The translations under genes were made by a program, and so were the position numbers. Positions 18,737 through 64,000 of a stretch of DNA of 64,000 bases are shown here, piece after piece. A model generated the notes under the pieces. The model did no database searches. It worked only from the letters and a program-made list of their open reading frames with translations, and was not told where the DNA came from. Source of the stretch: Nitrospirota bacterium (lineage in GTDB: Bacteria; Nitrospirota; Nitrospiria; Nitrospirales; Nitrospiraceae). How positions within the stretch are numbered: the stretch's first letter is position 1; each line of letters starts with the position of its first letter. The DNA lies in contig JACZQN010000001.1 in assembly GCA_022545705.1 (NCBI GenBank), positions 940 through 64,939 on the forward strand, read 5' to 3'.

Positions 18737-18902
18737 GGCTCTCTCGGCTTTCGTGTGGGTCAAGCCAGGCCTGGGGAGGGGCGCACGAAGCGAGGAATAA
18801 CGAGCTTCACGTTTGTGCGCGCCGCCGAGTCGGTGAGGCGGCCGGGTCTTGCCAGCTCCTCCGGCGAAGTCAGCGCTCACTCCACCGGACGCGGCGATTA
18901 TA
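18737..18902. repeat. rearranged partial copy of the 52252-52529 hairpin element, in the TonB-receptor/hflK divergent intergenic region
   Basis: 18737-18781 matches about 41/45 of 52252-52296. 18852-18880 is the exact reverse complement of the 29-mer at 52296-52324, fused to the reverse complement of CAAGACCCGG (18842-18851 vs 52425-52434). Confidence 0.6.
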
Positions 18903-31666: not shown

Positions 31667-31778
31667 ATTGAATCATCGAAGAATTGAGTCATTGTTTCAT
31701 TGACGATCGGCTCATTGAAGAATGTGATCATTGAGTCATTGGAGAATGATTCAATCGGCAGTGTTGCCATGAATCAAT
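31667..31778. repeat. cluster of seven ATGAYTCAAT / TCATTGA motif copies upstream of zapB
   Basis: ATTGAATCAT at 31667; ATTGAGTCAT at 31683 and 31730; TCATTGA at 31697, 31712 and 31728; ATGATTCAAT at 31747; ATGAATCAAT at 31769. All lie in the gap between the slt stop and the zapB start. Confidence 0.65.
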
Positions 31779-42707: not shown

Positions 42708-42724
42708 AGGATTTCTTCATCCGA

Positions 42725-42787
42725 TCATTGAATCAATGACTACATGATTCAATGACTACATGATTCAATGACCACATGACTCAATAT
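42725..42787. repeat. palindrome plus three 16-bp tandem repeats carrying the ATGAYTCAAT motif, abutting the pabC start
   Basis: TCATTGA-A-TCAATGA palindrome (42725-42739). Then CTACATGATTCAATGA twice (42740-42771) and a degenerate third unit CCACATGACTCAATAT (42772-42787). ATG at 42793. Confidence 0.7.
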
Positions 42788-51632: not shown

Positions 51633-52133
51633 TCATTCGTGAGTCGGCTGACAAGCCAGGAAGCTTGCAGGCTGACAGGGTCCGGATGTCAGCTTCTGAG
51701 ACGGTCCGCTTGTGACCCTCGTCGAATCGCTCACCTTGCACGATCTACCTAAGCCCGATGGGGAAGCTGAGCGAGCGCGAAGGCATGGCCATTTGTTGTG
51801 ATTCCGTCCTCGGGCTTTTTTCGGACCGGGATTCACGTGGGAGGCTCCTGTGCTCAGCTCAGATTCGACGGGGGCGTCAGGCTCCAGGTCTGGTTGAGTC
51901 ACCCACACTCCCTTGGCGTGGTACGCCAGGAGAGCGGAAGGCCGACGACGGCGTATCGTGGCCAGAGCCGCAGACGAGCCCTTGCAAACCTCGAGATAGC
52001 CATACTTGAGGTCATGAGCTTCCAGTGCTGCAAGCCATTCCAGTAGGTCCGGACTATAGACCTCCTCAGACAGACCCACCCCGTGGCGGGGAATGGCGGA
52101 AACCCTACGCAGAGATTTTTGCTCTACCGACAT
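51633..52133 (-). pseudogene. possible DUF692-like (UPF0276) N-terminal remnant
   Basis: The first ~95 codons (HGVGLSEEVYSPDLLEWL...YLEV...LLAYHAKGV) weakly resemble the start of DUF692 TIM-barrel proteins. The remaining ~70 codons are R/S/P-rich low complexity. Confidence 0.25.
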
Positions 52134-52219
52134 GACGAAAACCTCGGACTGATGATATGGGAGCGAGTGTAGTCGTTAGCCCCTTAGTTTGACAAGCGCG
52201 AACGCTTCTCTTGGGACTT

Positions 52220-52248
52220 TTGACCAGGTTCCCATCATCAAGTACAAT
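52220..52248 (+). promoter_or_regulatory. near-consensus sigma-70 promoter
   Basis: TTGACC (52220-52225), 17 nt, TACAAT (52243-52248). Confidence 0.55.
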
Positions 52249-52251
52249 TTA

Positions 52252-52529
52252 GGCTCTACCGGCTTTCGTGTGGGTAAAGCCAGGCCTGGGGAAGGGTGAG
52301 CGCTGACTTCGCCGGAGGAGCTGGGGACCCACCGAGGTCTTGCCAAGCAGGAAAGCCGAAACTGACCAAGGGACCACGGTCGCCAGACCGTGGCCGCGCG
52401 AATTTCGGAAGGCCTTCCGCTTGGCAAGACCCGGTATGGGTCACTCCGAGAGGCGCGGAAGCGCGAACCCTTTCCCCGGCCTCACGTATTCCGAAGACTA
52501 CAGGTACCCACACAAGATCCTGAAGAGCC
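52252..52529 (+). ncRNA. candidate ~280-nt rod-like structured RNA (unclassified; alternatively a hairpin MITE or a 5' leader of the LOG gene)
   Basis: Eight strictly nested helices, including a perfect 13-bp stem (52336-52348/52419-52431) and the apical hairpin 52374-52393. Starts a few nt after the promoter. The ORFs called here overlap each other and are low complexity. Confidence 0.4.
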
Positions 52530-52578
52530 ACAATTTAGAACGCTTCGCTTTTCAACATTTTTCCCAAGAGGCACCAGG

Positions 52579-53667
52579 ATGCGCAAGCCTGCAACCGCAA
52601 GTCGCCCGGCACCGACCAACGAGGAGACTTTGGCTCAGGTCCAAGCCCTCCTCGACGACTCGACGAATGACTTCCAATCGGTCTTATTGAAAGAAATGAT
52701 TGCAGGCGTGCTGAAGCTCAAGGACGCTCGGCTGGATACGCTTGACATCAAGATCCTCAATCGGACGCTCAAAGAACTCCGCCATGCCTTCACGGTCTTC
52801 CACGACTATCGTGATCGGCTGAAAGTCAGCGTGTTCGGTTCGGCCAGGACTCAGCCCGAGGATCCCAACTATCAACTGGCCTTTCGGTTCGCGGGCTGCC
52901 TGGTCGAGCGCGGATACATGGTCATCACGGGCGGGGCGGATGGCATCATGCGCGCCGCTCAGGAAGGCGCGGGCCGGGACCACAGCTTCGGCGTCAACAT
53001 CATGCTGCCGTTTGAACAAGGGGCCAACACCGTGATTGCGGACGACCCCAAGCTGGTGACCTTCAAATATTTCTTCGCTCGGAAGCTGCTATTCGTGAAG
53101 GAGTCCCACGCGGCTGCCCTGTTTCCAGGGGGGTTCGGCACACATGACGAGGGGTTCGAAGTCCTCACGCTCGCTCAGACGGGGAAGAGTAACCCTCAAC
53201 CCATCGTCTGCATCCAGGCGCCGGGATGCGACTACTGGGATCACTGGCGCAGGTTCATCACTGACCAACTGCTGACACGTCACCTGATCAACGAGGAAGA
53301 TCTGGCCCTGTTTCGGGTCTTCGAGTCAGAAAAAGCCGCGGTGGAGGAGATAGAGACCTTTTACCGCATCTATCATTCGATCAGATTCGTGGACCGGCAA
53401 CTCGTCATGCGACTCAAATGCCGTCTCTCCGACGACCAGCTTGAGACACTGAATACGGACTTCAGTGATCTCCTGGAGCGAGGCTCGTTCGCGCAGGGGG
53501 CCCCACTGCCTGAGGAACATGAGGAGCTGAGCCTGCAAGACCTGCCCCGCCTCATCTTCTTGTATAACCACCGGAGCGCGGGCCGGTTGCGCCAGCTGAT
53601 CGACCGCATTAACAGCTTCCCGCTCTCGTCCACGACGGCGTCCCCCAATACATCCACAGCCGTCTAA
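52579..53667 (+). CDS. LOG-family protein (TIGR00730 Rossmann-fold; long PpnN/YgdH-like form)
   Basis: VSVFGSAR, ITGGADGIMRAAQEGA and PGGFGTHDE motifs with extra N- and C-terminal domains. AAGAGG RBS before ATG 52579. Confidence 0.85.
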   Translation: MRKPATASRPAPTNEETLAQVQALLDDSTNDFQSVLLKEMIAGVLKLKDARLDTLDIKILNRTLKELRHAFTVFHDYRDRLKVSVFGSARTQPEDPNYQLAFRFAGCLVERGYMVITGGADGIMRAAQEGAGRDHSFGVNIMLPFEQGANTVIADDPKLVTFKYFFARKLLFVKESHAAALFPGGFGTHDEGFEVLTLAQTGKSNPQPIVCIQAPGCDYWDHWRRFITDQLLTRHLINEEDLALFRVFESEKAAVEEIETFYRIYHSIRFVDRQLVMRLKCRLSDDQLETLNTDFSDLLERGSFAQGAPLPEEHEELSLQDLPRLIFLYNHRSAGRLRQLIDRINSFPLSSTTASPNTSTAV

Positions 53668-53746
53668 GCGGTAGAGTCGCTGGGCACATTCCGATGGAGA
53701 GGATTTTCTCCGGCCGCCTAAGCGTGGTATGCTGTGTGGAGAGGTT

Positions 53747-54625
53747 ATGACGGGGACCCAAGAGAAGCCAAGCTTTTCTCCGATTCCAGAGGTGATCTTG
53801 TACCACGCGGAGTGCCTGGACGGGTTCGCCGCCGCCTGGGCCATCTGGAAGCGAGTCCCTTCAGCACGGTTTGTTCCTGTGAAGCATGGTGACCTGCCAC
53901 CTCATGAACTCACTGGACGACATGTCGTCATTGTGGACTTCAGTTACTCGCGCGCAATCCTCCTGAAGCTGGCCGGTGACGCGGCCAGCCTCAAAGTACT
54001 GGATCATCATATCACCGCCGAGGAGGCCCTCAAGGGGCTTCCCTTCGCATACTTCGATCAGAAGAAATCCGGCGCCGTCCTAGCCTGGGAATGGACACAC
54101 GCGCAACCCGTTCCCTGGCTGCTTCAATACGTACAAGACAAAGACCTCTGGCAGTGGGCCTTGCCCGGCAGTCGCGAGATCAATGCGGCCCTCTCCTCCT
54201 ACCCGTTCGACTTTCACATCTGGGACGAGCTTCGACAGGAGGCGTTGGAGGAGGAAGGGCGAGCAATCCTGCGTTACGAAAGCGAACTCGTGAGGAAAAT
54301 CGCGGAGGAAGCGGTGATGGTTTCTTTCGACGGCGAAACCGTGCCCGCCGTGCAGAGCTCGGTCCTCACCAGTCAACTTGGTGAACGCCTCTCCCTCGGC
54401 TATTCCTTCTGTGTCATCTGGCACGATCGGGACGGCCGTCGCTACTATAGCCTCCGATCGCGCGAGGAGGGCGCGAATGTGGCGGCTATCGCTCAGGCGT
54501 ATGAGGGCGGCGGTCATACGCACGCCGCAGGATTTTCTATCCCGCTTGGCCCGGATTACCCCTCACCGATGAGTCCCATCTCCCAAGGTAAAAGGCAAAA
54601 GGTAAAAGGTAAAAGGAGGGACTGA
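53747..54625 (+). CDS. DHH/DHHA1-family phosphoesterase
   Basis: YHAECLDG, VIVDFSY, LDHH and C-terminal GGGHTHAAG. The lysine-rich tail is encoded by the heptamer repeat. Confidence 0.8.
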   Translation: MTGTQEKPSFSPIPEVILYHAECLDGFAAAWAIWKRVPSARFVPVKHGDLPPHELTGRHVVIVDFSYSRAILLKLAGDAASLKVLDHHITAEEALKGLPFAYFDQKKSGAVLAWEWTHAQPVPWLLQYVQDKDLWQWALPGSREINAALSSYPFDFHIWDELRQEALEEEGRAILRYESELVRKIAEEAVMVSFDGETVPAVQSSVLTSQLGERLSLGYSFCVIWHDRDGRRYYSLRSREEGANVAAIAQAYEGGGHTHAAGFSIPLGPDYPSPMSPISQGKRQKVKGKRRD

Positions 54626-54701
54626 AGTTTTACCTGAAAGGACAACCGAATGCGCGTAGCCGAGAGGCCTCATTTTTGCCTTTTGCCTTTTAACTTTTGC
54701 C
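54587..54701 (+). repeat. GGYAAAA heptamer array and its inverted complement, forming a ~23-bp stem
   Basis: GGTAAAAGGCAAAAGGTAAAAGGTAAAAGG (54587-54616) pairs with GCCTTTTGCCTTTTAACTTTTGCC (54678-54701), with one mismatch and one G-U. The loop is about 61 nt. Confidence 0.6.
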
Positions 54702-54714
54702 TTATGTTATTCCG

Positions 54715-55440
54715 ATGATTCCGCTCCACGACGACAACCCCACATCTCTTACTCCGATCGTGACCGTCGCATTCATCGTGGCCTGCTCCCTCGTCTTTTT
54801 TTACCAAGTCTCACTCCCTCCGGTGCCGGGGGAGGTATTCGTGTTCCGCTATGGGGCCATTCCGGCTTTGTTATTCGGAAACGCAGCCGATTTGGGCGCG
54901 GACTTCGTCGTAGTCCCCGCCTCCATCAGCCTGATGACAAGCATGTTTTTGCACGGGGGGTGGATGCACTTGATCGGGAACATGCTGTACCTGTGGATCT
55001 TCGGAAACAACATCGAAGATGTCATGGGACATACCAAGTTCATCCTGTTCTACCTGCTCTGCGGCGTCTTGGCCGCCTTGAGCCACGCACTGACGGATCC
55101 TTCTTCTCCCATACCGATGGTCGGGGCAAGTGGGGCCATCTCTGGTGTCCTCGGCGCGTACCTGTTGCTCTTTCCACGGGCTCAGGTCATGATCCTCATC
55201 CCGCTGGGCATCTTCACCCGACTCATGTACGTGCCGGCCGGTTTTGTTCTGGGATTCTGGTTCCTGATGCAAATATTGAGCGGGGGGGCGAGTCTCGGTC
55301 GTGGCGGAGGCGGGGTTGCGTGGTTTGCGCACGTCGGAGGATTCCTAGCGGGTATGGTGCTCATCGGCCTGTTCAAGCGACCTGACGTCCGCTTCTTTGC
55401 CCCAGGTCGGCATCGATCCTGGCGCCGAGCTGACTGGTAG
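54715..55440 (+). CDS. rhomboid-family intramembrane serine protease
   Basis: HLIGNMLYLWIFGNN, catalytic GASGAISGVLGAY and AHVGGFLAG. Start at MIPLHDDNP. Confidence 0.88.
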   Translation: MIPLHDDNPTSLTPIVTVAFIVACSLVFFYQVSLPPVPGEVFVFRYGAIPALLFGNAADLGADFVVVPASISLMTSMFLHGGWMHLIGNMLYLWIFGNNIEDVMGHTKFILFYLLCGVLAALSHALTDPSSPIPMVGASGAISGVLGAYLLLFPRAQVMILIPLGIFTRLMYVPAGFVLGFWFLMQILSGGASLGRGGGGVAWFAHVGGFLAGMVLIGLFKRPDVRFFAPGRHRSWRRADW

Positions 55441-55591
55441 CACGAGCACCCCATGGGTGAGATCTTTTGTGCCGACCCCGGTGCCATTCGGACTCCGGGC
55501 GACGGTTCCTCGAACCACCCGTCCGGCACCGGGCGACGCGCGGGCGTGACCGACCGGCAATGCCTCCGTCGTCGCGTCACCCTGAGTCTGA

Positions 55592-56080
55592 TCAGTAGGG
55601 ACGACCATACAGCCGGCTCTCGATCGTGCGCCGGAGTCGCTCTTCCTCCTCCTTCCCTATCTTGATAAATTCAAGACCCATCCGCTTGCCCTCAACGGAC
55701 TTCACCACAGCCCCTTCAACCTGCACCGGCGGTTCATGCTCGGCAACCTCGATCCTTAACCTGAGGCAGGCCCCCTCTTGTGCTGGCACATTGCCATCGA
55801 TCGTACAGCCTCGAATCGAGAGATTGACCAGAGTCCCCTGCGCCACTTCCGCCTCGTCGCCTGAAAAGGCAGAGCCAAAGACGACCGGGTATCGGACGAG
55901 TATTCGCTCATAATCGCGATGAGGGTTGTAGCTTGGACGGCCGGAAAAGGCCAGAAAGCGATGCGTGCAAAGCTGACAGCGAAACGGATACACGGTCACC
56001 ACGCGCAACAAGCGCTCAAGCACCCCTCGCCGGGGAGACTGACGCACAATCCACATGTTGCATCGTGGGCAATTCGGCAT
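55592..56080 (-). CDS. PilZ domain-containing protein with N-terminal zinc-ribbon-like Cys pairs
   Basis: CPRC...CQLC N-terminus, and a PilZ-like beta-barrel (RILVRYPVVF...GTLVNLSIRGC...MGLEF). Confidence 0.7.
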   Translation of the reverse strand: MPNCPRCNMWIVRQSPRRGVLERLLRVVTVYPFRCQLCTHRFLAFSGRPSYNPHRDYERILVRYPVVFGSAFSGDEAEVAQGTLVNLSIRGCTIDGNVPAQEGACLRLRIEVAEHEPPVQVEGAVVKSVEGKRMGLEFIKIGKEEEERLRRTIESRLYGRPY

Positions 56081-56362
56081 CTCTCGGATGACCCCTTATG
56101 TGATCCTCACGACCTGTGACCCGTGCACTGTGTGCGGATTGCACAGATTCTAGCCTATCCACGGCCCTCGGCTAACGCTGTGCCCTGTCCTACGTGAGTC
56201 ATAGCCTGTTGACGAATGGCTCCCATCGGGGCTCAGACTTTCTCTCGGGGATTGGTCACCCTAGTCGGTGATCCCCCGGATGCGACGACGGATTCACCGG
56301 CACGAAAGGGAGCGCTCAGCGTGAGTCCGCTGTCATCAGTGCTGCAGCGTCCCGGCGTGGTG

Positions 56363-57100
56363 TCATCCTGACCTCCGTGACCGACGGGCCTTCCTATTCT
56401 CGCGTTTGGCTTCCGGCGATGATGCCAGGGAGGCCTGCGTCAGCTCGGCGCGAAACTGCTTGATGCGGTCGCGAATCACTCGATAGCGACCGGCCAGAAT
56501 CAGTGCAGCCAGTAGCCCGGCGTTTTCTGCTCCGCCGATCGCGACGGTGGCCACAGGGACGCCTCTTGGCATCTGCACAATGGATAACAACGAATCGAGG
56601 CCCCGCAAGTGTTCCGTGGGAATCGGGACACCAATGACCGGGAGATGCGTCTTGGCCGCCAGAATGCCCGGGAGGTGCGCCGCGCCGCCTGCGCCGGCCA
56701 CGATCACTTCAATACCCCGCTCCGCTGCCTGCGAGGCGTATTCAAACAGGCGGTCGGGCGCCCGGTGAGCCGAGAGCACCAGCAGCTCGTTCGGCACACC
56801 TAACCGGCTCAACATGGCAACCGATTTTTCGAGCACCGGCAAATCGGTTTTGCTCCCAGCGAGCACGGCCACGAGCGCTGGGACGTCAGAGGAGTCGCGT
56901 GGAGCACGGGGCCAAGAAAGAGCAATCTGTAGTTCTCCGGAAACAAGGCTTTGCGCTATCTTCAGCTCCACGGTGACCGGGTGCCGGACTGGTAAACTGG
57001 AACCGTTGACCCGCACGACGCCCTTGCGCTCGATCTCCTGCAGGATCTGTCTCAGTTCTGTGATCCCCCGAATTGCTTTTCTCGTACTCCGACGGGCCAT
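56363..57100 (-). CDS. purE: 5-(carboxyamino)imidazole ribonucleotide mutase PurE with an amphi-Trp-like N-terminal domain
   Basis: PurE core VAVLAGSKTDLPV...LSAHRAPD...AGAGGAAHLPG...PVIGVP. About 75 extra N-terminal residues end in VTVELKIAQSLVSGELQIALSW. Confidence 0.85.
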   Translation of the reverse strand: MARRSTRKAIRGITELRQILQEIERKGVVRVNGSSLPVRHPVTVELKIAQSLVSGELQIALSWPRAPRDSSDVPALVAVLAGSKTDLPVLEKSVAMLSRLGVPNELLVLSAHRAPDRLFEYASQAAERGIEVIVAGAGGAAHLPGILAAKTHLPVIGVPIPTEHLRGLDSLLSIVQMPRGVPVATVAIGGAENAGLLAALILAGRYRVIRDRIKQFRAELTQASLASSPEAKRENRKARRSRRSG

Positions 57101-57214
57101 CCGTTCCTCCGCTCACCGCGGCGTTGCTCGTCGCGTTCCCGTAACGCCTCGCCTCGTGGGCACACCAACAAAGGCCGCGTCGTGGAGACAATGCGACCAA
57201 CAGAGACCGAAGGC

Positions 57215-58147
57215 TCAGTGTCGATCGAAGCCAGTGCGCACCCGGCCGAGGATGCGATAGATGAGCCGGGCAATGGCAAACTGGGGAGCGACGAACCCCT
57301 CGATGGGGGCGATCTCGCTGACGTCCATGCCAATCATTCCCGGTCCCTCGGCCAGCGCCGTCACCAATGTGAGGGTGTCATACCAGCCCAGACCTCCCGG
57401 TTCCGGGGTCCCCAAGGCCGGCACCAACGACGCATCCAGCCCGTCGCAATCAAACGTGAGATAGACGGGCCCTGAGCAGGCCTTTACAACTTCCGGCACC
57501 CACTTGGTGGCTCGACCTTCGTAGGGACCCGCTGGATCCAGGATCTGTGCGGCGAAGAACGTGGTGATCGTTTTGGTGCTGCGGATCAAGTTGATCTCTT
57601 CAGGAGAGATGGACCGGATCCCCACCTGAATCAGGGGCAGCCCCTCCTCCACGACTCGGGCCATCACGCTGGCGTGACTATAGGGGTTTCCTTGGTAGGC
57701 CTGGCGCAGATCCCCATGAGCGTCCACCTGCACTACACAGAGGTTCGGCCAGCGACGGGCGTGCGCCCGGATCGCGCCCAGAGCGCCGGTATGTTCACCG
57801 GTGAGCGTCACGACGAACCGGCCTGGCTTCATATGCGGACGGACGAAAGCCTCAATCGAATCTACCGCGGCTTTATCCACCTTTCCCGCAAGATCCAGAT
57901 AGGCCGCCGTCGCCACTCCGTTCCAACGCTGGTACGTTTCGGAGCCAAGCTGTTCGTCGTAGAGCTCGACTTGTCGTGAAGCTTCGAGAATGGCTGACGG
58001 CCCACGAGCGGATCCCGAGACATAGCTGGAAGTGTGCTCATACGGGACCGGAAGGACGTACACACCGGCCTGTTGCGGATGGCACCATGGCTCGTCGATC
58101 CCCAGAAAATTCTGCTCCGGACCGAGCCAGCCCTCTGGCAACGTCAT
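57215..58147 (-). CDS. speB: agmatinase (arginase fold)
   Basis: Mn-ligand motifs VQVDAHGDL, SHASV and TFDCDGLD. GGAGGT RBS before ATG 58147. Confidence 0.9.
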   Translation of the reverse strand: MTLPEGWLGPEQNFLGIDEPWCHPQQAGVYVLPVPYEHTSSYVSGSARGPSAILEASRQVELYDEQLGSETYQRWNGVATAAYLDLAGKVDKAAVDSIEAFVRPHMKPGRFVVTLTGEHTGALGAIRAHARRWPNLCVVQVDAHGDLRQAYQGNPYSHASVMARVVEEGLPLIQVGIRSISPEEINLIRSTKTITTFFAAQILDPAGPYEGRATKWVPEVVKACSGPVYLTFDCDGLDASLVPALGTPEPGGLGWYDTLTLVTALAEGPGMIGMDVSEIAPIEGFVAPQFAIARLIYRILGRVRTGFDRH

Positions 58148-58151
58148 GGAC

Positions 58152-58727
58152 CTACCTCCGGCCTCGTGTCCTCTTCGGAAGGTTCTCGAGGGGAATAAAA
58201 ATCGCCAACGCGACGACCGTCGCCCACCGGCCGGCCTTGCCGATCGCGGATTGCGTGATATTGACCGTCCGAACGATTTTCCCTCCCATCTTGAAGACCT
58301 GCTCGCGTTCTTTCCAGGCCAGGTTCGCATCGAACTCAATACCCAGCGTCGTTGCCAACATCTGCGCCGCCAGATCTTCCGTGTATTCTCCGGACTCTTC
58401 ATCGGTCTCACCGTAGGCGTGATGTTCGGAGAGATACCCGTAGGTCCGACGGTCGGTGGGGATAGCCAGACCGATGGATGCAGAGATCAACCGATTCCGC
58501 TCGTTGGTTTCTGAGCGGGCCATCACGCAATGGGTAATTTCACCTGGCCTGAGCAGGCCCTCCCCGCGTTTGCGCGGGATGATCTTGCATTTTGGCGGCA
58601 AAATCGAGGACACGCTGACCAGATTACAGTAGGCGACCCCGGCTCTGCGCAACGCTTGCTCGAAAGACGCCAGCTTCTCTCTGTGAATCCCAACGCCCCT
58701 CGTCAGAAACAGGTGAGTCGGAACCAT
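58152..58727 (-). CDS. pdaD: pyruvoyl-dependent arginine decarboxylase
   Basis: [13 protein letters not shown]... and the self-cleavage region [11 protein letters not shown]. Confidence 0.9.
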
Positions 58728-58907
58728 TGCTTCTCCATTGAGGCCACACGGACCACCTTAGCACACGGAATGCGTCATCGCAGAGCGGCGCCCAGTCGTT
58801 GGGCCGCGTACTGCAGTCGCACTTGTATCAATATGAAAGAGATTCCGCAATATGGTGGGAGGCGATTTTTTGTGTGGAGGCCCTTCCCCTCTGGGCGGCT
58901 GGACAAT

Positions 58908-60362
58908 TCACGAATCCCTGAGGTTGAGCACGAGAAGCTTCAGCTCGGTCATCTCTTCGATCGCGTAGCGCACTCCCTCTCGGCCCAATCCTGAGTCTTT
59001 CACTCCCCCATAGGGCATGTGATCAGCACGAAAGGTCGGAATTTCATTGGTCAGCACCGTACCAACTTCAAGTTCTCTGTAAGCACGGAACGCCCGATTG
59101 ACGTCAGACGTGAAGATTCCCGCTTGGAGACCAAACGGGCTTGCATTCATGGCATCGAGCGCCTCCTCAAACTTCTGATACCGCGTGACGGTCACAACCG
59201 GCCCGAAGACTTCCATGCACGACACTTTCATTCCCGGCGTCACGTCGGTCAAGACCGTGGCTTCCACCAGGGAGCCAGATCGCTTCCCGCCCATCAGCAC
59301 CTTCGCGCCCATCGCGACGGCTTCTGCAACCCACTCTTCCACCCTTCGAGCCGCCGCCTCGTCAATCAGAGGCCCGATCACCGTCGCGTCGTCGGCTGGG
59401 TCTCCGGATCGGAGCGCGCCGATGCGGGTCAGAAGCCGCTCCAGGAAGCGATCATACACAGCGTCCTGTACGAAGATACGCTGCACTGAGATGCAGGTCT
59501 GGCCTGAGTAGCTATAGCCTCCGGTCGCGCACCGTTGGGCTGCGAGATCAATGTCCGCGTCCGGCTCCACGATCACACCGGCGTTCCCGCCCAATTCGAG
59601 CACGACACGCTTCTTGCCGCACTTGTCCTTGAGTGTCCAGCCCACCGCTGCGCTTCCTGTGAAGCTCAATAACTTGAAGCGCGGGTCCCTCACCATCCGT
59701 TCGGCAACAGCATTCGCACACGGGATCACGCTCAGCGTTCCCGGCGGCAGACCGCTCTCCAGCACGAGTTCTGCGAGCAGCAAGGAGGTGAGGGGCGCCT
59801 GCGGTGCTGGCTTCAGGACAAGAGGGTTTCCGCATGCCAGGCAGGGCGCGAGCTTGTGGGCAACCAGATTCAGGGGGAAATTAAACGGAGTGATGCCGAG
59901 CACCGGCCCGATCGGAAATCGGCGGGAAATCCCGATGTGGGTCTCGGAGCCTTGTGCGAGATCAAGCGGGACCACCTCGCCTGGAATCCGCTTGGCCTCC
60001 TCAGCCGCAATCGTGAAAGTCTGAATGGCGCGGCTGACCTCACGTCGCGCGTCTGAAATCGGTTTCCCAGCCTCGGTGGTAATGGTCCGAGCAAACTTCT
60101 CCTGGCGGTCGGCCAGCAACTGGGCAATCTTGTTCAGGGCGTTGGCCCTCGCATAAGCCGGCAGCCGTCGGAGAACCGAGAACGCAGTGAGGGAAGCACT
60201 CGTGGCTTCATCGGCCTCGGCGTCTCCTGCCTGACAGACCTCCGCCACCGTGGCCCTGCTGAACGGATTCGCCACCGGCAAGGTCTCCGGAGTGTATCGC
60301 CACTGATCTGCGATCAGGAATGGGCGCGCGGTACCCACCGTGAGCGTTCCTTCTCCAACCAA
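58908..60362 (-). CDS. NAD(P)-dependent aldehyde dehydrogenase
   Basis: Catalytic Glu LELGGNA, catalytic Cys GQTCISVQR and PFGGVKDSG. Confidence 0.9.
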   Translation of the reverse strand: MVGEGTLTVGTARPFLIADQWRYTPETLPVANPFSRATVAEVCQAGDAEADEATSASLTAFSVLRRLPAYARANALNKIAQLLADRQEKFARTITTEAGKPISDARREVSRAIQTFTIAAEEAKRIPGEVVPLDLAQGSETHIGISRRFPIGPVLGITPFNFPLNLVAHKLAPCLACGNPLVLKPAPQAPLTSLLLAELVLESGLPPGTLSVIPCANAVAERMVRDPRFKLLSFTGSAAVGWTLKDKCGKKRVVLELGGNAGVIVEPDADIDLAAQRCATGGYSYSGQTCISVQRIFVQDAVYDRFLERLLTRIGALRSGDPADDATVIGPLIDEAAARRVEEWVAEAVAMGAKVLMGGKRSGSLVEATVLTDVTPGMKVSCMEVFGPVVTVTRYQKFEEALDAMNASPFGLQAGIFTSDVNRAFRAYRELEVGTVLTNEIPTFRADHMPYGGVKDSGLGREGVRYAIEEMTELKLLVLNLRDS

Positions 60363-60366
60363 TCAC

Positions 60367-60642
60367 TCATTCGTTCGGCTCAACACCCCAAGCCGGATCC
60401 GGCAGGGAAGGTTGAGCAACGGCAGCCTGAGCCTCCACGGCCTTGGCGATCAGTTGTTCGCTGCCCCAGTCACGAATGGAATCAAGCGTGAACGCTTCGT
60501 ACGTCGAGACGCCGTGACAAGCCGGACAGTCCGGAACCGGCACGTTGCGTCGAAACACCTCGTTCAGGCAGGACATGCAGACCAGGAGATCCGGTTCGCC
60601 GTCTTCGCACTCGACCGGCCAGAACACTTGTTCCTGTGACAT
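60367..60642 (-). CDS. hypothetical Cys-rich small protein (possible zinc ribbon)
   Basis: CMSC...CPAC pairs. Its stop lies 4 nt before the aldehyde dehydrogenase start. Confidence 0.5.
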   Translation of the reverse strand: MSQEQVFWPVECEDGEPDLLVCMSCLNEVFRRNVPVPDCPACHGVSTYEAFTLDSIRDWGSEQLIAKAVEAQAAVAQPSLPDPAWGVEPNE

Positions 60643-60724
60643 GGCTCCCTTCTCGATTTGTACTACCTGGGCAGAAGACCAGACGGAGGAAGGATAGGAT
60701 TTCTCCCTGAAGAATTCAACTCTT

Positions 60725-61399
60725 TCATTTCTCAGTCGGCGCGCCTAGGAGGCGCTCGATCTGCTCCTGAAACACCTCGTACGGAAACGCGCCAGGGAGC
60801 AAGACCGGAGGGTCTTCTCCAGCGCCCTGGGTCCTCAGCAGCAGAAACCCGGGAGTGCCACGAAAGCCAAGCTTCACTCCTTCAGCACGGTCCTCGAAGA
60901 TCGCCTCCGCATGGTGGCCTGCGCGGACGCACTTCGTGAAGGACGGAAGGTCCAGACCGATTCTTGTGGCGTGGTGCTTGAACATCGCAAACGTGAACAC
61001 CCCGCTCTCGAACAGCCGATCATGCATCACCCAATAACGGCTCTGGTCGCCCGCGCAGCGTGCTGCGACAGCAGCAGTCAGCCCCGGGCCTCGGAACGCG
61101 CGGGGATAGTCTCGGTACAAAAACCGCACCTTCCCCGTCTGAACATAATTCGCCTGGATTCGCGGCCATGTTTCCCTGAAAAACTTCGTGCAGTACCCAC
61201 AAGTGAAGTCGGAGTACTCGATGAGCGTCACCGGCGCATTCGGATCTCCTCGCATCCGTCCGTCATCCCGGACGAGTTGTTCGGTGGACTGCGCGCCGCT
61301 CCAATCCGGAGCCACGAGCAGGAGTGCGAGCCAGGCGCCCAGCCAAATCGGAGTTGGCCGTCGGAGCGCCGTCGGACAATGCGTGACCACCTCATCCAT
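60725..61399 (-). CDS. DsbA-family thiol:disulfide oxidoreductase
   Basis: Signal/anchor and the thioredoxin-fold active site FTCGYCTKF. Confidence 0.85.
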   Translation of the reverse strand: MDEVVTHCPTALRRPTPIWLGAWLALLLVAPDWSGAQSTEQLVRDDGRMRGDPNAPVTLIEYSDFTCGYCTKFFRETWPRIQANYVQTGKVRFLYRDYPRAFRGPGLTAAVAARCAGDQSRYWVMHDRLFESGVFTFAMFKHHATRIGLDLPSFTKCVRAGHHAEAIFEDRAEGVKLGFRGTPGFLLLRTQGAGEDPPVLLPGAFPYEVFQEQIERLLGAPTEK

Positions 61400-61426
61400 G
61401 ATCGATTCACTTACACTGAGAATAGA

Positions 61427-61840
61427 TTAGTCCTCTTCACTGCGGACGCGGGCACGCAGCTGCTTGGCTAAGTGCCGTCGCCTTTTCTCGGAGAGCCGCT
61501 GCTCGACAGCCCGCCTCGATACGCGCGTCCGGACCCGAGCCTTACGCACACGGTTGAGCTCCTCAAGCTTGGCAATGAGCCGCGCGAACGCGATTTCTCG
61601 GTTCCGGTGCTGCGACCGGGAGTCAGCCGCCAGCACCCGTACACCGGAGGGCAAGTGCCGTAACCGGACGGCAGACTCAGTCACGTTACGGTGCTGGCCG
61701 CCTGGTCCCCCGGAGCGGAAACGTTCCGTGACCACCTCCCGCTCCAAGGCCACACGGTCCGTATGATACGGGGGCTGGGAGGAGCGCAGCTTGGAACCTC
61801 TTTCATGATGCTGGGATCGGTCTGGCAAAGCGCGTGACAA
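61427..61840 (-). CDS. arfB: alternative ribosome-rescue factor ArfB (peptidyl-tRNA hydrolase, GGQ domain)
   Basis: SGGPGGQHRNVTESAVRLRHLPSG and a basic C-terminal tail. Confidence 0.85.
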   Translation of the reverse strand: MSRALPDRSQHHERGSKLRSSQPPYHTDRVALEREVVTERFRSGGPGGQHRNVTESAVRLRHLPSGVRVLAADSRSQHRNREIAFARLIAKLEELNRVRKARVRTRVSRRAVEQRLSEKRRRHLAKQLRARVRSEED

Positions 61841-61846
61841 GCAGCC

Positions 61847-62953
61847 TCAGGAGGCATTCTGTTTGGCTCGTTGCCGTTCGACGAGGCCCATCATCAGCAA
61901 CGGCCAGACCACCGTCGCATCACTCAGAACTTCCGCAAAGCGACCGCCTTCCTCCTCGGGAACAAACTTACCCCAGGAGACTCCCTCCTGATACGTGCAT
62001 CCACTGAGCCCACCCCAATAGTCTGGCTCCGGACAGATCCGCACACCATAACGGAAGCGGGGCGGCTTAAGATGGAGGCCCAACCGAAGGTTGCCAATTT
62101 CCACATACGGCCCCACTTGCTGAGCCCAATTCCTCGGGACGCCTCCACCGATCGTGAAGATCCCCAGCCGTTTCGCTGAGACTAACCGCTCCGTGAAGCT
62201 GTTCAGGTCGAGGTAGGGATTGAACGAGGGATACGATTGATGGATCGCGCGCAGGATGCCCAGGTCATCACTGGGCCCGCCCACCTGGTTTCTCGCTCGG
62301 CCCTGAGCCTCTTGCATCGCCCATGTCCCGACATCCAGCCCCATTTCCGAATCAGTAAAGGCTGGAATGTACACAGGGACGCCCTTGAGGTACGCGCTTA
62401 TCAGGATGCCGGTTCCGTGACGTTCCTCAACGAGTGTGCGCCCCAGCTCGCGCATGAGGATCTCTGAAGAAAGCGTTTGACCCGGCTCGAGCCGCTTGAG
62501 GGTGTGCGCCACGACGTGCTCCACGTAGTTAAGGTTGGCCTCCATCTCCACAGTGTCGTACACCCGGTTGTACCCTTTCCGGAACAATTCTTCATCGCTC
62601 ATGGAGGCCTGATGGCGGTAATGAACCCTGCCGACCGACTCGCTCAAGCCATGCGCGATGAGCGCGCCGGTCGAGACCACGGTTTGCACCATACCGTGGT
62701 CGATCATACTGCTGATGATTTTTCCCATCTTGGCAATGGTCATCGCGCCGGACAGCGTCAGCACCACGAAGCAATCGGGATCCTCGATCATCGTGGTGAG
62801 GATCTCGTAAGCCTCCCCCACCCGACGTCCGCCAAATGCGGTTTTCCGCATGGCGCTCAGCAGATCGGAGAAAGAATGGATTGCCTCAGGATCGAGCGGC
62901 TCGAGTGGTTCGAGCCCATCGTCGGCCCCGTCGTGATACGCGCGCGGTTGCAT
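61847..62953 (-). CDS. deoxyhypusine synthase-like protein (possible homospermidine synthase)
   Basis: Full-length DHS fold pattern (LTLSGAMT..., VSTGALIAHG, FTDSEMG, GGGVPRNW). Confidence 0.85.
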   Translation of the reverse strand: MQPRAYHDGADDGLEPLEPLDPEAIHSFSDLLSAMRKTAFGGRRVGEAYEILTTMIEDPDCFVVLTLSGAMTIAKMGKIISSMIDHGMVQTVVSTGALIAHGLSESVGRVHYRHQASMSDEELFRKGYNRVYDTVEMEANLNYVEHVVAHTLKRLEPGQTLSSEILMRELGRTLVEERHGTGILISAYLKGVPVYIPAFTDSEMGLDVGTWAMQEAQGRARNQVGGPSDDLGILRAIHQSYPSFNPYLDLNSFTERLVSAKRLGIFTIGGGVPRNWAQQVGPYVEIGNLRLGLHLKPPRFRYGVRICPEPDYWGGLSGCTYQEGVSWGKFVPEEEGGRFAEVLSDATVVWPLLMMGLVERQRAKQNAS

Positions 62954-63000
62954 CGCTTCCCCGATCTCTTGACAAGCTCAGAAGGAAGGAATCTCGTTTC

Positions 63001-63029
63001 CTTATACACAACCGTCCCCAGGGCGTCAA
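63001..63029 (-). promoter_or_regulatory. sigma-70-like promoter for the DHS-like/arfB/dsbA gene string
   Basis: Minus strand reads TTGACG (63029-63024), 17 nt, TATAAG (63006-63001), about 48 nt upstream of ATG 62953. Confidence 0.4.
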
Positions 63030-63244
63030 TGCTATCAGCAAGTCTAAACTCTTAGATGTGCCGGAGAATCAGAGCGGATCATCCCCTTGGCCACACTGTT
63101 GCCTGTCACCCGAGCCTGCTCAAACCCTTGGGCGTCAGACACTCTGTGATTCCTCGCCGCGGAAGATCACTCCCATCGCAGACCGTGATTCGCAACCAGT
63201 GGAAGACGGGCAGACCCCTGCGCAGCCTGGCAATGCTCGCTGGC

Positions 63245-64000
63245 TTAAAATTTGGCGATGTCGGATAGGTCCTTGGGATACAGCACGATCTCGATGCGGC
63301 GGTTCTCGGCTCGTCCTTCCAGTGTTTCGTTGCTGGCCACCGGTCTGTTCTCCGCATATCCGACCGCTGACAAGCTCGCTCTGTTCATCCCACCTTTCTC
63401 GATGAGATAGCGAACCACACTCGTTGCGCGAGCAGTGGAGAGTTCCCAATTGGTCGGGAACCGTTCGATGATCTTAGGCCCGATGGGCACGTTGTCGGTG
63501 TGGCCTTCGATTCGGATCTGCTTGTCGGTCACGTGCTTGAGGATATCGCTTACCCTTTTGAGCACCTTGAGGCCGTCCGGTTTTACCTGTGCCCGCCCCG
63601 AGTCAAACAGGACGCGGTCCACCATGTTGATCCTCAGCCGGTCCCGCACCTGCTGGATCTGGATGTCACCCTTCGCGATTTCTGATTCTAGGGACTTCGT
63701 CAGCTCCGCGTGCGTCTGAGTCAGCCGGGCAATCTCGGCCTCCTTGGCCGCCTGTTCCCGCTCGAGGCGCGCCTTCTCCGCCTCCTCGGCCTCGAACTGG
63801 GCAGCCTGCTGCTTTAGCTTAGCCTGGAGCTGGTCCTGCTCCTCTGTCAATATCGCAAGGGTCCGCTCAGTCGCACCCATTGTTTCTTGCTGGGAGCGGA
63901 CTCGAGCGGTCAGCTCGTCGCGCTCCTGGCGGATGCCTGCCGCTTCGTCGCTGAGCGTGGCCAGTTCCCCCGTAAGGCTGCTGATCCGCTGCTTCGAATG
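63245..64000 (-). CDS. OmpA/MotB-family peptidoglycan-binding protein with long N-terminal coiled coil (5' end beyond window)
   Basis: C-terminal OmpA-like domain (IRIEGHTDNVPIG, ELSTARATSVVRYL, NRRIEIVL). The frame stays open from 63880 to the window edge through heptad-rich sequence. Confidence 0.8.
   Translation of the reverse strand, partial: HSKQRISSLTGELATLSDEAAGIRQERDELTARVRSQQETMGATERTLAILTEEQDQLQAKLKQQAAQFEAEEAEKARLEREQAAKEAEIARLTQTHAELTKSLESEIAKGDIQIQQVRDRLRINMVDRVLFDSGRAQVKPDGLKVLKRVSDILKHVTDKQIRIEGHTDNVPIGPKIIERFPTNWELSTARATSVVRYLIEKGGMNRASLSAVGYAENRPVASNETLEGRAENRRIEIVLYPKDLSDIAKF

Follow-up and report, generated by a model that had tools for sequence, protein, structure and literature searches.

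The 64,000-nt stretch of Nitrospirota DNA analyzed here (the window) carries an intact LOG-family gene on its plus strand, and 445 bp separate the LOG start codon (52579) from the end of a minus-strand open reading frame (ORF) at 52133. Most of this gap is occupied by the segment 52252–52529, which folds into one long imperfect hairpin, or rod. [quoted passage not shown] Judging from the sequence, we consider it probable, at roughly 0.85, that 52252–52529 is a non-autonomous MITE of the ISL3 type inserted in the promoter region of the LOG gene. The features of the locus, in which the element is given as this probable assignment, are as follows.

52220–52248, plus strand: native sigma-70-type LOG promoter (−35 TTGACC at 52220–25, 17-nt spacer, −10 TACAAT at 52243–48).
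52244–52251, no strand: left copy of the target-site duplication ACAATTTA, read directly, identical at 8 of 8 positions to 52530–52537 and covering the last 5 nt of the −10 hexamer.
52252–52529, minus strand in the left-to-right orientation of its repeats: ISL3-type MITE, 278 bp, with both ends matching GGCTCTNNNGGNTNTNGTGTGGGT, a rod fold and no transposase.
52252–52282, plus strand: end from an ISL3 right inverted repeat, agreeing at 25 of 25 bases with the right repeat of the ISL3 element in locus L039.
52283–52482 (approximate), minus strand: rod core, a member of a dispersed hairpin family, assigned by a match to covariance model R1, a pattern scan and covariation.
52483–52529, plus strand: end from an ISL3 left inverted repeat, whose repeat core lies at 52506–52529 and is read on the minus strand.
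52530–52537, no strand: right copy of the target-site duplication ACAATTTA, from direct reading and the pairing of the ISL3 repeats.
52538–52578, plus strand: rest of the native LOG 5′ leader, with the ribosome-binding site AAGAGG at 52566–71.
52579–53667, plus strand: LOG-family gene, 362 amino acids, intact, 3′ of the insertion, with thousands of homologues bearing PF18306 and PF03641.

The named LOG homologues are from Nitrospiraceae, and the window was placed in this family because of them. The promoter-like site noticed in the initial annotation is indeed present: TTGACC-17-TACAAT matched the consensus at 10 of 12 positions in a promoter scan, compared with 0.2 sites yielded by shuffles of the region.

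The two ends of the rod are mutual inverted repeats (GGCTCTACCGGCTTTCGTGTGGGTA and, on the opposite strand, GGCTCTTCAGGATCTTGTGTGGGTA), and what both of them share was written as the pattern GGCTCTNNNGGNTNTNGTGTGGGT. This pattern has three matches in the window, at both ends of the rod and at 18737, versus 0.01 expected by chance. In species-representative genomes it was found in at least 119 stretches, many of them at contig ends, and the taxa among the matches listed were Nitrospirota, Binatia, Rokubacteria, Methylomirabilis, Gemmatimonadota, Planctomycetota and others. Facing pairs of the pattern among these listed matches delimit two classes of elements, one of 1264–1553 bp (11 with perfect 8-bp flanking repeats) and the other of 195–611 bp (7 with perfect 8-bp repeats, that of the window included). 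The 8-bp duplications collected around these elements were mostly AT-rich, and such a duplication, 8 bp long and AT-rich, has a published precedent in an element with an ISL3 transposase (PMC9782665). A full-length ISL3 element in L039 (4537–5844, 1308 bp) encodes a 420-amino-acid protein with the domains DDE_Tnp_ISL3 (E = 1e-72), Zn_ribbon_ISL3 and HTH_Tnp_ISL3, the C-terminus of which (...LYPHESR-stop) falls inside the right repeat; the reverse complement of window 52252–52280 reads identically. The right end of the window element resembles the left repeats of ISL3 copies in two Nitrospira genomes (L051 and L037: GGCTCTTCAGGA...GTGTGGGT.ACTG), where full-length copies encode transposases 74% and 72% identical to that of L039. 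Thus the element shows every testable defining feature of a MITE derived from an ISL3-family insertion sequence (IS). The interiors of other short ISL3-type elements (L004, L070, L083, L089 and L107) are unrelated to the rod core.

A site lacking the element was found in a relative. This relative is L002 (GCA_016207025.1), a Nitrospirota genome with a LOG protein 74% identical to that of the window. The gene order there is the same as in the window (Maf, Dus, a gene of the MbnB/TglH/ChrH family and then LOG on the opposite strand), and the intergenic region is 185 bp long with no hairpin. Removal of 52252–52537, i.e. the element and one copy of the repeat, leaves 159 bp in the window, which are collinear with the L002 region and have in common with it the blocks TTTGACAAG.GCG, CTTTTGACCA and TA..ATTT. 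The LOG promoter of L002 reads TTGACC-17-TAAGAT and lies 46 nt before the start codon, and the distance from the −10 hexamer to ATG in the emptied window is 44 nt. Because L002 keeps the promoter before LOG without the element, the promoter belongs to LOG; and since the emptied region is collinear, the element appears to have landed after the −10 hexamer and before the leader. In L002, which is distantly related, AAGATTTG stands at the target in place of ACAATTTA. Closer to the window stands L001, a Logan contig from run ERR10503127 with 98.0% DNA identity to window 52501–63305. Its first base corresponds to window base 52501, which lies in the right end of the element, so the insertion is shared within the species, and an assembly break at such a position is as expected of a repeat.

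Folding of 52252–52529 gave the single nested rod drawn in the initial annotation, with a minimum free energy of −155 kcal/mol versus −107.6 ± 5.5 for shuffled sequences (z = −8.7; none of 200 shuffles as good). Of the eight helices listed there, seven are in the minimum-energy fold, and the eighth, CCGAAA/UUUCGG, is drawn differently in this fold, yet it is backed by the family alignment described below. The large internal bubble did not stand, since this region is mostly paired in the minimum-energy fold and appears across relatives as a small 4×3 internal loop. The reverse strand gave −161 kcal/mol (z = −9.3); as the rod folds on both strands, it is a DNA palindrome and not a strand-specific RNA fold.

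These results bear on the proposal that the rod is an independent gene for a structured small RNA, either 6S-like or some other regulator, transcribed from the promoter at 52220–48 and ending near 52529. Although a near-consensus promoter does lie 4 nt upstream of the rod, it is the very promoter that L002 keeps directly before LOG, and despite its very stable fold, the rod has ISL3 repeats at its ends and the 8-bp duplication on both sides, shows no open central bubble in the predicted folds and is followed by no terminator-like site in a scan. A check for covariation was positive for the inner helices, whose compensatory changes would suit an RNA gene; the family members, however, stand in both orientations relative to their neighbours and occur several per contig, unlike 6S RNA. 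The window-plus-equivalent strand was the more stable one in 73 of 85 family copies, which would agree with a strand-specific product, and purine-rich loops may explain this bias. No match to a known family was obtained, so such an RNA would be new: Rfam had zero matches at gathering score in the 64-kb window, in agreement with the earlier statement that no known RNA signature is present, and with E up to 10 only chance-level matches to microRNAs and long non-coding RNAs were seen on either strand of the rod region. The covariance model of 6S RNA, RF00013, which had been singled out for checking, matched neither strand at gathering score or at E up to 10. We therefore regard a stand-alone RNA gene as highly improbable. 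A target-site duplication and multiple copies, named in the initial annotation as observations that would speak against it, were both found and favour a MITE, as do the ISL3-identical inverted repeats, the empty site in the relative and the homologous copies elsewhere.

A protein-coding reading of the rod was also rejected, since the frames are not conserved among copies owing to insertions and deletions and the ORFs inside the element have no Pfam match. When the 91-amino-acid ORF of the window was used as a query, 2 proteins were matched, leading to loci L122 and L123, and a profile of 24 core translations matched 27 proteins; such elements are therefore rarely called as genes by gene callers.

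Because the inner helices covary and no Rfam family matches, the interior of the element is more than random MITE filler. Its distribution was followed with the 20-base pattern TGGTCAGTTYCRGCTTTCCT, taken from the best-conserved inner stretch (window minus strand, 52350–69). At least 120 contigs of JGI metagenomes carry this pattern, and a scan of viral contigs gave no match. Of the 130 core matches listed, 127 have no ISL3 repeat within 260 nt. The possibility that the core-only copies are old ISL3 MITEs with decayed ends was rejected, because the ends should then be at least as conserved as the interior, yet they are absent from these 127. A 20-base pattern from the 5′ arm had no match in species-representative genomes, a set that is without the source genome. 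A covariance model of 164 positions (R1) found one copy in the window (52297–52463, minus strand, 151.8 bits, E = 8e-34). In 756 kb fetched by means of the ISL3 repeat pattern from many phyla, together with the earlier loci, it found the core only in L014, L065, L122 and L123, so the core is not a general interior of ISL3 MITEs. In 467 kb of core-bearing metagenome contigs, on the other hand, there were 105 matches on the modelled strand, including second copies without the exact pattern and one tandem pair, with several matches per contig. The neighbours of the core are housekeeping genes (ATP-citrate-lyase-like subunits, succinyl-CoA synthetase, isocitrate dehydrogenase, YchF and ribosomal protein S6), which fit Nitrospira-like genomes, and the copies with a taxonomic label (window, L014 and L065) are from Nitrospirota only, to which the family is apparently restricted. 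Rfam 15 gave zero matches in 111 kb from 19 loci with at least 20 core copies among them, and a limited literature search found no published description of the family. A search for target-site duplications around core-only rods gave no signal with boundaries from minimum-energy folds of 380-nt segments, which are unreliable for this use.

Core copies carry nested small palindromes, insertions and deletions. One short REP-like palindrome, CCCGTTGC-N8-10-GCAACGGG, was seen at 19 sites in 16 sources (among them L002 3770–3794 and 11121–11146, L014 3072–3096, L131, L159, L164 and L171), nearly all of them Nitrospira-type loci and sometimes nested in a rod; it is absent from the 64-kb window. Two rod cores stand in tandem 6 nt apart in L139 (1831–1994 and 2000–2152), and two short ISL3-type elements lie side by side in L123 (276–533 and 541–856), which suggests nested or tandem insertion of repeats. 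In one subfamily, group A (L126, L128, L132 with two copies, L136, L137, L138, L145, L175, L177 and L197), conservation extends over about 420 nt, in the order of a 45-nt leader GGCTGACGAAGGGCGAACTGCTCCGG, the rod, a terminator-like hairpin GGCGACGGGC...GCCCGTCGCC with compensatory changes and a tail ending in AGTGATTGCCC, which is an imperfect inverted repeat of the leader. The group A unit may be a different vehicle for the same core.

In order to examine the pairing of the core, 48 diverse copies were aligned by MAFFT with no structural input (alignment A3), and a rod of 57 pairs, the majority of the single-sequence folds, was tested on it. A standard pair is formed in 93.1% of the pair cells versus 84.0% after shuffling (0 of 500 as high), 32 of the 57 pairs are changed on both sides versus 20.4 ± 2.2, and 270 cells are changed on both sides versus 72 ± 11, where it should be considered that the structure was derived from the very sequences tested and that related sequences may beat shuffle controls without structural constraint. 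When partners were slid by 1–3 columns, pairing fell to 34–47%. The apical 8-bp helix occurs as CCGCGGTC/GACCGCGG, CCACGGTC/GACCGTGG, CCGCGATC/GATCGCGG and other variants, and an inner helix alternates between CTGGAA/TTCCAG, CCGGAA/TTCCGG and CCGAAA/TTTCGG. Beyond the 20 columns fixed by the pattern, 16 more are invariant, including unpaired bases in a CCTT bulge and a TTCCCG loop. From the pattern, homology detectable by BLAST reaches about 95 nt leftward and 50 nt rightward; past this range, the sequences of the outer stems differ between subfamilies and their pairing is kept. Conservation along the rod is thus maximal at the apex and minimal at the base, which is opposite to the expectation for terminal repeats or REP doublets.

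Such a profile raises the possibility that the core (about 52283–52482) is a functional structured module, either a cis-acting RNA (a transcript-end stabiliser, terminator or processing site) or a protein site of folded single-strand DNA, with the ISL3 MITE as a mere vehicle. This would add to the MITE reading rather than replace it, and we put it forward tentatively, as possible more than as likely. The abundance of copies without ISL3 ends, the invariant unpaired bases, the double changes and the outer stems that vary yet pair all agree with it, even though, for the pairing values, kinship could beat the shuffle controls and the nested insertions and deletions in the copies are those of junk repeats. 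Regarding genomic position, the pattern strand follows the 3′ end of the upstream gene in 40 cases versus 20 (p = 0.013), a weak bias from crude, deduplicated gene calls with both orientations common, while no bias relative to the downstream gene was observed (18 versus 16), and divergent promoter regions are seldom occupied (2 of 21 hold the core). The strand tests conflict with each other. On the strand opposite to the window-plus equivalent there are 142 G-U pairs versus 62 A-C mismatches, which favours the pattern strand, but 112 of these G-U pairs are at three fixed positions, and elsewhere 62 A-C mismatches stand against 30 G-U pairs, so that mismatches as well as folding energy point to the other strand. 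A consistent U-tract does not follow the rod, whose flanks both show just a mild AT-rich zone. As a whole, these features agree better with a dispersed palindromic repeat that is maintained as a hairpin than with a cis-regulatory RNA of strict orientation, although the core may also have a transcribed function.

A further-reaching form of this idea, which we find doubtful, is that the rod core of about 165–200 nt represents an undescribed class of structured nucleic acid in Nitrospirota, either transcribed as RNA or acting as a folded site in single-strand DNA, with a dedicated protein partner and spread on several unrelated mobile vehicles. Its near-invariant apical domain would consist of the CCUU bulge, the UUCCCG and GGUCAG loops and the covarying 8-bp tip, and the proposed vehicles would be the ISL3 ends and the 420-nt group A unit.

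REPINs are dispersed intergenic palindromes with compensatory changes, and the core could likewise be a REPIN- or REP-type element, copied by a domesticated tyrosine HUH transposase (RAYT) that recognises a folded single strand. The repeats share the dispersed, intergenic and palindromic character as well as the compensatory changes, and the same genomes hold the short REP-like palindrome mentioned above. In a REPIN, however, two REP units form the base, the least conserved part of the rod; the unit of 165–220 nt is far longer than a REP, and no recurrent transposase-like gene or RAYT was found near 123 core loci. This origin of the core therefore seems quite unlikely to us.

Returning to the ISL3-type MITE as the explanation of the window element, several points weigh against it or limit what it explains. 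No ISL3 transposase was found in the 64-kb window by tblastn, and beside the one intact copy the window holds just one relic. The interior is not derived from ISL3 and its conservation far exceeds that expected of MITE filler, so the MITE explains the arrival of the window copy and not the existence of the core. Transposition itself is inferred from footprints in the DNA.

The second copy, which the initial annotation had placed at 18737, does exist in the window, where its fold is not a rod (z = −1.2 and −1.4).

18737–18880, plus strand: decayed relic of a related element, with an ISL3 repeat and outer stem (18737–18781), module X (18782–18841) and core-arm fragments (18842–18880).

Compared with the rod, it has 42 nt at 93% identity (repeat and outer stem) and 29 nt at 100% identity in inverted orientation, and its core-arm fragments are joined across a deletion of the apex. 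Neither a second ISL3 repeat nor a target-site duplication was found at 18737–18880, and this copy is a relic. Better-preserved relatives lie outside the window. L065, a Nitrospiraceae genome, has a full 266-bp MITE that is 73% identical and flanked by the duplication ATTTTTCT; L123 has a copy 80% identical, beside a second short ISL3-type element; and L014, from the same genome as L002, has an interior 77% identical with no recognisable ISL3 ends. In the metagenome contig L122, a copy is 96% identical over 204 nt, its flanks are unlike those of the window, and its other side is joined to module X. Module X is a separate hairpin of about 60 nt (GCGCACGAAGCG...GTGCGCGCCGCCGAG.CGGTGAGGCGG) found in 7 sources inside or beside rod copies, where it replaces part of one arm; in addition to the window it occurs at 6 other loci (L122 3575–3601, L138, L190, L214, L228 and L237) and may be another small mobile palindrome.

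The events at the LOG locus may be outlined as follows. An ISL3-family DDE transposase, presumably supplied by a full-length ISL3 copy elsewhere in the genome, would have mobilised the MITE in trans and inserted it into the LOG promoter, in the AT-rich stretch at its −10 hexamer and the transcription start, duplicating ACAATTTA. The ends of about 30 and 47 nt would be the right and left ISL3 inverted repeats, respectively, and the interior of about 200 nt would be a copy of the rod repeat that is dispersed intergenically in Nitrospira-like genomes independently of ISL3 ends. LOG transcripts would now start within the element's first bases, and the rod would be part of their 5′ leader; because no terminator follows the rod, they should run through it into the LOG leader, and the rod stays intact in the predicted fold of this rod-bearing leader. 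MITE transcripts typically form stable stem-loops (PMC10969869). The core hairpin, for its part, may be kept folded because it is recognised as a folded single strand by some protein or process.

Several other observations were made around the locus and in the rest of the window. Back to back with the LOG promoter, the scan called one more promoter-like site.

52166–52195, minus strand: divergent promoter-like site TTGTCA-18-TACACT, putatively that of the remnant of the minus-strand gene.

The block TTTGACAAG.GCG near this site is the one also kept in L002. The minus-strand ORF (51633–52133) corresponds to just the N-terminal ~100 residues (55% identical) of the 500-amino-acid MbnB/TglH/ChrH-family (DUF692) protein of L002 and continues into Dus; it appears to be a pseudogene or what a deletion has left. 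The 9-mer GAACGCTTC at 52200–52208 and 52538–52546 flanks the promoter and the insertion, and it was dismissed as probably a coincidence, since chance would give about 0.4 repeats of this kind in 445 nt and it is not kept in L002. Apart from this locus, an AT-rich 28-nt motif (ATTGAATCATCGAAGAATTGAGTCATTG-like) occurs in six overlapping copies in two clusters 11 kb apart (31667–31741 and 42711–42754), which are unusual in a window of 60% G+C and could be arrays of protein-binding sites.

For the locus itself, these results remove the lead toward an RNA gene and place an insertion in the LOG leader, where it may alter LOG expression. More generally, a large family of long-hairpin repeats that we did not find catalogued is carried by nitrite-oxidising Nitrospira-like bacteria, which are of importance in wastewater treatment and the nitrogen cycle. 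Long hairpin repeats of this kind break short-read assemblies, as seen from the contig that ends inside the window element, and can confound the discovery of RNA genes. The core repeats may act as transcript-end or protein-binding elements, and with a pattern, an alignment and a covariance model now defining the family, it is directly testable.

Compared with known systems, the window rod shares with 6S RNA (RF00013) a rod-like fold with internal loops beside a strong promoter, but it is longer (278 nt versus ~180–200), does not match the model and has no open central bubble; it is also multi-copy, has transposon ends and a target-site duplication, and stands at a promoter owned by the downstream gene. 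The core is closer to REP/BIME/REPIN and ERIC-type repeats in being intergenic, present several times per contig and rare in divergent promoter regions, and in consisting of imperfect palindromes that are held paired by compensatory changes and are mosaic or nested with small palindromes. It differs from them in its size (165–220 nt), in conservation that peaks at the apex, in having no RAYT seen near the 123 loci and in being known, as far as named copies go, from Nitrospirota only. The window element as a whole most resembles the bacterial MITEs derived from IS elements (Correia/NEMIS, ERIC, Nezha, Chunjie and QMITE), since it is 278 bp long and non-coding, has inverted repeats identical to those of a DDE insertion sequence and a target-site duplication of the length typical of the family (8 bp), lies in an AT-rich intergenic promoter site and forms a long stable stem-loop over its whole length. 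What sets it apart from these MITEs is its interior, which is not a remnant of the parent IS but a hairpin conserved in its own right, with more than 100 occurrences that lack ISL3 ends.

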